Shown one piece after another: positions 26,370-27,140 of a stretch of DNA of 35,878 nt. Every line of letters starts with the position of its first letter. Positions within the stretch are counted from its first letter, which is position 1. The notes below the pieces were generated by a model. That model ran no database searches, was not told the origin of the DNA, and saw nothing but the letters and a program-made list of their open reading frames with translations. This DNA is from a virus (taxonomy: Duplodnaviria > Heunggongvirae > Uroviricota > Caudoviricetes), in the IMG/VR virus record IMGVR_UViG_2684622775_000005. The stretch is one strand, 5' to 3'. The translations under genes were made by a program, and so were the position numbers.

Positions 26370-27140
26370 TTACTGTTTACCACGTTTAGTCATCTCATCT
26401 GCTAACTGTGAAGACCAATAATGTTGATTCTTCGCATCTAATATGAAGTGTAGCGCTCTCGCGCAGTGTATCTGAGCAGACTCATAAGCATGGATATTAC
26501 CAACTGAAGTAGGAACTAAGTGGGTTTCAGGTGTGTAGTATTGGTAGATGCTCGTTTGTGAAGGATGAACATATTCGCTAAGTATGTCATACGTCAGTTC
26601 AAAATCGCTTTCTCTCCCCTTAGTCTGTTTCATCTCATCTTCATAGAGATCGCGTAAAGCATTCATCACATGCTGACTGACAGCAAGTAGGTTTTCAAAA
26701 CGATGCTTAGTCTCTTCAGTAAACATGTAGTCGTTAGGGTCAAATACTCCTTTCTGAATCTTTTCTTGCTCTGACTTTTTAAATCGGGAACTGTTCGTAA
26801 AGCCCAGGATGACATCGAGAGCTTTATCTACACTTTCGCGGCCGCTTTGGTTCGTCAGGATCTTCTCCACTTTCTTGTTTAAGAGTCGTGAGAAAGCATG
26901 TGTTTCAATCATCCCCCGGCTAACGACACAAGCGGCTTGGTATCGTTCGTTTTCGAGGAGGAGAAGCGCATCATCAAAGATATCTATCTGCCTGTTCATT
27001 AGCAAATTTGCATAGTTAACGAGATACAACCCCTGATCAGGATTATGCATCTTTCCGACAACTACGCCGTTAACCTTGTTCAGCGCAGCTCTGGCGGCTT
27101 TTGCCTCGTTTAGGCTCTGCTCTATAAGTTCTTTAAACAT
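26370..27140 (-). CDS. cargo gene 2 at the Z/fun position: hypothetical protein (256 aa); weak HEPN-like Rx5H motif (speculative)
   Basis: ORF with ATG start and AAGGAA Shine-Dalgarno; convergent with cargo gene 1; contains SRGMIETH (R-x5-H), compatible with a HEPN-type RNase motif but unverified. Confidence 0.7.
   Translation of the reverse strand: MFKELIEQSLNEAKAARAALNKVNGVVVGKMHNPDQGLYLVNYANLLMNRQIDIFDDALLLLENERYQAACVVSRGMIETHAFSRLLNKKVEKILTNQSGRESVDKALDVILGFTNSSRFKKSEQEKIQKGVFDPNDYMFTEETKHRFENLLAVSQHVMNALRDLYEDEMKQTKGRESDFELTYDILSEYVHPSQTSIYQYYTPETHLVPTSVGNIHAYESAQIHCARALHFILDAKNQHYWSSQLADEMTKRGKQ

Follow-up and report, generated by a model that had tools for sequence, protein, structure and literature searches.

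What does the accessory gene at positions 26370–27140 of this P2-like prophage encode, and could its product be the stand-alone HEPN-type abortive-infection RNase that the initial annotation had proposed from a single short motif, SRGMIETH? The window, i.e., the whole stretch of 35,878 nucleotides that was analysed, is a P2-like prophage with its integrase gene at 583–1596 and its tail genes in the order H-G-slot-FI-FII-E-T-U-D, where the slot lies between the tail-fibre assembly gene G (24467–24994) and the sheath gene FI (27641–28831; 98% identical to phage P2 FI). In P2 itself, this slot holds one 299-aa gene, Z/fun, in + orientation, whereas in the window it holds two convergent ORFs, of which the one studied here, a DUF5677 gene (see below), has the opposite orientation to Z/fun. 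Three defence systems have been validated by experiment at the Z/fun locus (PMC9519451). Hotspots of the P2 tail region are also on record, and in other E. coli prophages the same slot encodes FRG, DUF6615 or DUF4145 proteins. The identical 256-aa protein is found in E. coli assemblies, every time in the two-cargo arrangement.

The ORF at 26370–27140 (minus strand, ATG start, 256 aa) is a real gene. Its product has 106 homologues at E ≤ 1e-3 in a large protein database, mostly gammaproteobacterial, and the comparison with three E. coli alleles yields a dN/dS of about 0.2 (0.18–0.22), which indicates that the coding sequence is under purifying selection. The initial annotation had described a minus-strand ORF with a good Shine-Dalgarno sequence, convergent with its neighbour (cargo gene 1), followed by its own bidirectional terminator and intermediate in composition, and this description was borne out throughout: AAGGAA, as read from the sequence, stands at 27148–27153 (minus strand), 7 nt 5′ of the ATG, and is kept in the E. 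coli loci; cargo gene 1 is a plus-strand ORF (25213–25941); the hairpin AGCCCCTGTAGAGGGGCT at 26346–26363, with a G+C-rich stem of 7 bp and a T-run behind it, lies 6 nt past the stop and was scored as terminator-like on both strands, in a scan that returned 7 such sites in the region against 1.8 expected; and the G+C content of 42.7% falls between the 36.2% of cargo gene 1 and the 56.5% of FI. Upstream, about 100 nt of 5′ DNA (27141–27240, minus strand), presumed to hold promoter and leader, move with the gene: together with the start codon, they are kept in the window, in two P2-type E. coli loci and in one non-P2 E. coli island, and beyond them the sequence diverges between loci. A scan of the region returned no strong sigma-70 consensus on the strand of the gene, and an upstream 40-aa ORF (27169–27291), broken by a 16-nt indel in the other loci, is not conserved. 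The protein itself is soluble, mildly acidic (29.5 kDa, pI 6.07) and contains 12 Arg and 10 His.

The boundaries of the module are marked by repeats. A 35-nt sequence that follows G (25049–25083), itself part of a hairpin (GGCACAGAG...CTCTGTGCC), has a second, direct copy (86% identical) at 26230–26264 (plus strand), which forms the left boundary of the DUF5677 module, while an inverted copy (inverted repeat I1, 74% complementary) lies on the right at 27419–27457 (plus strand); the TCAAATCTGACAG motif of this right-hand copy is also found upstream of the gene in E. coli loci. Those E. coli prophages that carry DUF5677 alone lack the segment between the two direct copies (cargo gene 1 plus 290 non-coding nt), and in E. 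coli CFSAN051542 a single 35-nt copy after G is directly followed by the DUF5677 module. Taken together, the three copies look like the footprint of a cassette insertion by recombination at the slot boundary, and cargo gene 1 looks to have joined the DUF5677 module through a recombination that duplicated the 35-nt sequence. The intergenic part that differs from the E. coli DUF5677-only loci (27364–27547, plus strand) also gives a weak match to the Rfam family of the sRNA STnc150 (26.4 bits for a gathering threshold of 60, E 0.006), and this stretch ends at a strong terminator-like hairpin (27517–27537) just upstream of FI.

Does the gene work with a partner? DUF5677 alleles that are 84–91% identical at the protein level sit alone in the same P2 slot, and the arrangement of these loci identifies the gene as a solo module. 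Cargo gene 1 was considered as an antitoxin or trigger partner and rejected, given these solo alleles and the occurrence of cargo-1 homologues elsewhere without DUF5677. The gene is rare: among 5426 complete E. coli genomes, 8 have it, as does one plasmid record, and the protein found no match by tblastn in 50,697 phage records. More distant homologues occur in varied company. In Stenotrophomonas, the gene has type I restriction-modification neighbours; in Pseudomonas, it stands at the end of a P2-type tail cluster and is also found alongside OLD-TOPRIM/DUF4276, SIR2 and HsdR; the Klebsiella copy adjoins Phd/VapC on an element of 30.5 kb; that of Sulfurimonas lies in a prophage, between repressor and integrase; that of Providencia is at the end of a lambdoid prophage; and some homologues are found among IS elements. 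Two Pseudomonas loci (L011 and L012, about 6780–7000) share about 225 nt of upstream DNA kept in two genomic contexts, with a near-consensus promoter (TTGACT-17-TACAAT) and a leader in which GCACTTCT occurs three times in tandem; behind the gene, the two loci have one and the same convergent pair, which encodes a 213-aa protein and an OLD-TOPRIM/DUF4276 protein.

The prophage carries further cargo. Cargo gene 1 itself is an orphan of 242 aa and 36% G+C, for which searches of Pfam, PADLOC, NCBIfam and PHROGs found no match; its homologues form only 18 clusters, each of them “hypothetical”. The homologue in Citrobacter belongs to an IS-bounded unit with an SRAP protein, and that in Ewingella to a tmRNA-side integrase island, together with DUF4365, HNH and a large helicase. 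Cargo gene 1 may itself be a candidate for defence, independent of the DUF5677 gene. The old/tin position, which is the other hotspot of P2, holds a 30% G+C gene (6671–8878, minus strand) whose product is a 735-aa protein that matches the PADLOC candidate system PDC-S06 over its full length (E 4e-254) as well as Pfam AAA_13, and the C-terminal part of which matches PrrC (E 4e-16), an anticodon nuclease type with a HEPN nuclease domain. Finally, between the tail genes S and V, an ORF of 389 aa and 35% G+C (18634–19803, minus strand) runs antisense to the late genes and is matched by neither Pfam nor PADLOC; with it, the prophage would have a third slot for low-G+C cargo.

At the level of sequence families, the 256-aa protein is a member of DUF5677, a known but uncharacterised family: Pfam PF18928 matches residues 43–202 (profile positions 3–159 of 166) with 34.7 bits for a gathering threshold of 27.1 (E 2.4e-8), the same model is matched by 30 of 33 distant relatives, and RefSeq names the E. 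coli homologues “DUF5677 domain-containing protein”. In UniRef, close relatives bear the names “AbiV family abortive infection protein” and “HEPN domain-containing protein”; in the literature searched, neither a function nor a fold is assigned to DUF5677. An exhaustive profile search of 1.84 billion representatives retrieved only 54 at E ≤ 1e-3, and the family is therefore small. Within it, our protein falls in a small gammaproteobacterial subfamily that differs from DUF5677 at large by a longer helical insert. Searches of PADLOC, NCBIfam and PHROGs gave no match, and sequence and profile searches of the PDB came back empty. A bridge to a named HEPN family was also sought through the large-database profile search and abandoned, since only more DUF5677 proteins were retrieved. 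Two very long proteins, P0133 (1486 aa) and P0152 (3138 aa), contain 13 and 9 separate short matches to the family profile, all at profile positions 83–119, i.e., at the start of the insert, around FTNSSRFK, which suggests that this segment resembles a repeat unit used elsewhere.

HEPN profiles gave little support for the reading of the initial annotation: DUF5677 is the sole Pfam match of the protein, with no HEPN family at E ≤ 1, and none of the PADLOC models, AbiV included, matches it. Among the 33 relatives, one shows a weak, co-linear match to HEPN_AbiV (E 0.016, 15.8 bits for a cut-off of 27.1). The fold class proposed by the initial annotation nevertheless stood, even though the Rx5H motif offered as evidence is a chance match (see below). 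According to the structure prediction, DUF5677 has a HEPN-type core, a four-helix bundle of the AF0298/AbiV-like class that is up-down in topology and has an insert between helices 2 and 3, and the model superposes on solved HEPN domains; Foldseek against the PDB returned insignificant global matches only, and the predictions for two distant family members agreed with each other. In the model, an N-terminal helix (2–18) precedes two core helices (37–63 and 67–97), a helical insert (about 98–178), a kinked helix (179–189/195–202), a beta-hairpin (208–217) and a long last helix (218–255). We infer from this layout that HEPN helices 1 to 4 correspond to 37–63, 67–97, 179–189/195–202 and 218–255, respectively, and the helix-2/3 insert to 98–178.

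The conserved residues appear to gather at one end of this predicted bundle. The strongest signature of the family, Y184-D-I-L-S-E189-Y-V-H192-P193 (codons at 26562–26591, minus strand), covers the break between helices 179–189 and 195–202: in an alignment of 152 sequences, Y184, E189 and H192 are invariant (152/152) and P193 nearly so (149/152); on helix 67–97, R75 is likewise invariant (152/152) and E79 nearly so (150/152). In relatives down to 17% identity, R75, Y184, E189 and H192 remain invariant, and E79, L187 and P193 almost invariant. Under the helix assignment above, helix 2 would bear R75 and E79 near its start, and helix 3 would bear Y184, E189, H192 and P193 at its end or kink, i.e., at the same end of the bundle, and the order and direction of the helices would bring H192 and R75 into one site. 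E79 would pair with R75 as Rx3E, the reverse of the HEPN Ex3[KR]. In HEPN proteins, the catalytic His is found where helix 3 ends in a distortion, helix 2 bears a conserved acidic residue close by, and inserts occur between helices 2 and 3 (PMC3710099); our mapping agrees with this literature because it puts the His at the helix-3 kink and the acidic residue on helix 2. An Rx4-6H motif is absent from the end of helix 3, the positions 4–6 before H192 being Ile/Ala, Leu and Ser. Yet accepted HEPN families lacking Rx4-6H do exist, and in some families the R or H of the motif was replaced from elsewhere (PMC3710099). DUF5677 thus appears, on the predicted model, to be a non-canonical variant of the HEPN kind, in which the His is apparently kept and the Arg relocated.

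What could such a protein do? Our preferred reading, tentative and credited with slightly less than an even chance, is that of a candidate stand-alone, HEPN-derived effector of the abortive-infection type, with a rewired active site. The cargo gene (a “moron”) would be transcribed independently of, and antisense to, the tail operon, with its own 5′ region, RBS and terminator, and the lysogen would make the DUF5677 protein; upon infection by another phage, the protein would act as an abortive-infection-type effector, probably as a metal-independent RNase like other catalytic HEPN proteins. In the putative site, H192 at the helix-3 kink would keep the place of the catalytic His, helix 2 would provide the Arg, i.e., R75 with E79, where HEPNs usually have Ex3[KR], and Y184 and E189 would complete the arrangement. 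We infer the RNase chemistry, the defence phenotype and the residue-to-site mapping alike, and the label “stand-alone abortive-infection RNase” is our interpretation of the fold and the genomic context. In Bacillota, DUF5677 is statistically enriched near defence regions marked by serine recombinases, and one member from this phylum was included in a test against six phages, in which five ORFs gave defence but not this one. Against the effector reading stand the failure to find an antitoxin, a repeat array or a conserved small ORF at the DUF5677 loci, the low pI compared with the lysine-rich AbiV, and the missing canonical Rx4-6H. A more far-reaching version, possible but doubtful in our eyes, would make DUF5677 an unrecognised, partner-free, single-gene family of antiphage HEPN proteins with a rebuilt site (the His at the SExxHP kink, the Arg on the RxxxE of helix 2 and an added invariant Tyr), which would represent a catalytic configuration new to HEPN RNases or else a new chemistry or substrate.

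The same fold and the same residues could also serve without catalysis, and this is the strongest competitor of the effector reading, even if we consider it rather unlikely. The protein would then act in binding, in sensing or as an adaptor, or else as an anti-defence inhibitor directed at systems of the host or of rival phages, with the conserved R/E/Y/E/H residues lining a ligand or partner pocket. Such a role has precedents in the HEPN-T class (AF0298, the C-terminal domains of kanamycin and lincosamide nucleotidyltransferases, sacsin), which includes substrate-binding domains that are not RNases (PMC3710099), and it would suit a solo gene devoid of antitoxin, an acidic to neutral protein without the canonical motif, and the negative defence assay of the one member tried. 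However, five invariant polar or charged residues, in relatives as distant as 17% identity, look more like a catalytic site, HEPN families that keep conserved charged residues are probably still RNases (PMC3710099), and no nucleotidyltransferase partner was seen near DUF5677 in the loci examined; as for an anti-defence role, P2 elements rarely carry such genes (28 of 1511).

Two other readings have, to our mind, only a small chance each. In the first, the chemistry would differ: the helical bundle would carry a metal-binding ExxH element (E79, E189 and H192), and the protein would be a metal-dependent hydrolase or similar. In the second, for which we would likewise give little, the cargo would be unrelated to phage conflict, acting for instance as a regulator or a host-fitness factor. 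P2 hotspots do carry partition systems and the cytolethal distending toxin as well, and the protein matches no defence model, but its homologues repeatedly neighbour restriction-modification, OLD-TOPRIM, SIR2 and toxin–antitoxin genes and occupy the accessory slots of several prophage types, its predicted fold is of the HEPN type, and its rare and patchy distribution is typical of defence genes.

As regards the motif from which the initial annotation had started, the string SRGMIETH (residues 74–81, codons at 26898–26921, minus strand) does fit R-x(4-6)-H and is the only such occurrence in the protein, but the fit is no better than chance: 76% of the composition-preserving shuffles of the protein carry at least one Rx4-6H. 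Nor is the motif conserved in homologues, for column 81 of the 152-sequence alignment contains His in 57 members, Tyr in 58, Val in 13, Ala in 6, Ile in 5 and Phe in 3, while R75 never changes. From this pattern of His, Tyr and aliphatic residues, position 81 is a packing position and not a catalytic one. SRGMIETH is weak evidence precisely because three quarters of the shuffles match and H81 varies. The stretch is contained in helix 67–97, R75 lying about 8 residues into it, i.e., in the second long helix of the modelled bundle, whereas the HEPN motif is located at the end of helix 3 (PMC3710099). A canonical HEPN RNase with R75-x5-H81 as its catalytic motif is therefore the least credible reading of all, with hardly any chance left: the string fits, R75 is invariant and the enterobacterial subgroup keeps H81, but conservation already contradicts it, the motif sits early in the second core helix, the residue after the Arg is Gly, Ala or Ser instead of the motif-typical polar N, D or H (PMC3710099), and a string of this kind is expected by chance. 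On the methodological side, a lone Rx4-6H string is thus uninformative in a protein of this composition.

Returning to the effector reading, the gene is a candidate defence gene with mutational predictions of its own: H192, R75 and E189 should be essential and H81 dispensable. If DUF5677 proteins do defend, they would constitute a compact single-gene system overlooked by the present tools for finding defence genes, no model of the PADLOC library matching the protein; so far, the family has been tested once, in a distant host. If the rebuilt site is real, it would represent another route for the HEPN fold to reconstruct its active site, and would help to predict which “motif-less” HEPNs remain nucleases.

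How does this protein compare with known systems? By sequence, it is unrelated to the PADLOC models, including the PD-* models for the PD systems that Vassallo et al. (2022) reported from the second defence hotspot of P2. One of the closest known systems is AbiV of Lactococcus (HEPN_AbiV, PF18728), the toxin of a type III toxin–antitoxin abortive-infection system, which degrades rRNA. Neither the Pfam nor the PADLOC model of AbiV matches our protein, and the two differ in several respects: the insert of AbiV carries the working motif 91-RNHKSKH-97, where ours reads FTNSSRFK and has no His; AbiV has a lysine-rich RNA-binding surface, at odds with a pI of 6.07; and AbiV needs an upstream RNA gene (abiV2, about 170 nt), whereas only about 100 nt are conserved upstream of DUF5677. 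A type III antitoxin-like element was looked for in this upstream region, which contains no tandem repeats, no conserved small ORF and no Rfam family on the strand of the gene; by eye, the upstream regions of distant homologues share no obvious common element. AF0298 (PDB 2hsb; HEPN-T clade, Anantharaman et al. 2013) shows no similarity to DUF5677 at the sequence level, and our protein has twice its length and includes an insert of 80 residues, a helix at the N-terminus and a beta-hairpin. AF0298-type HEPNs and AbiV have both kept the basic residue of the motif and gained a new His from an insert N-terminal to it; in DUF5677, the order would be reversed, the invariant Arg coming from the helix that precedes and the invariant His from the one that follows.
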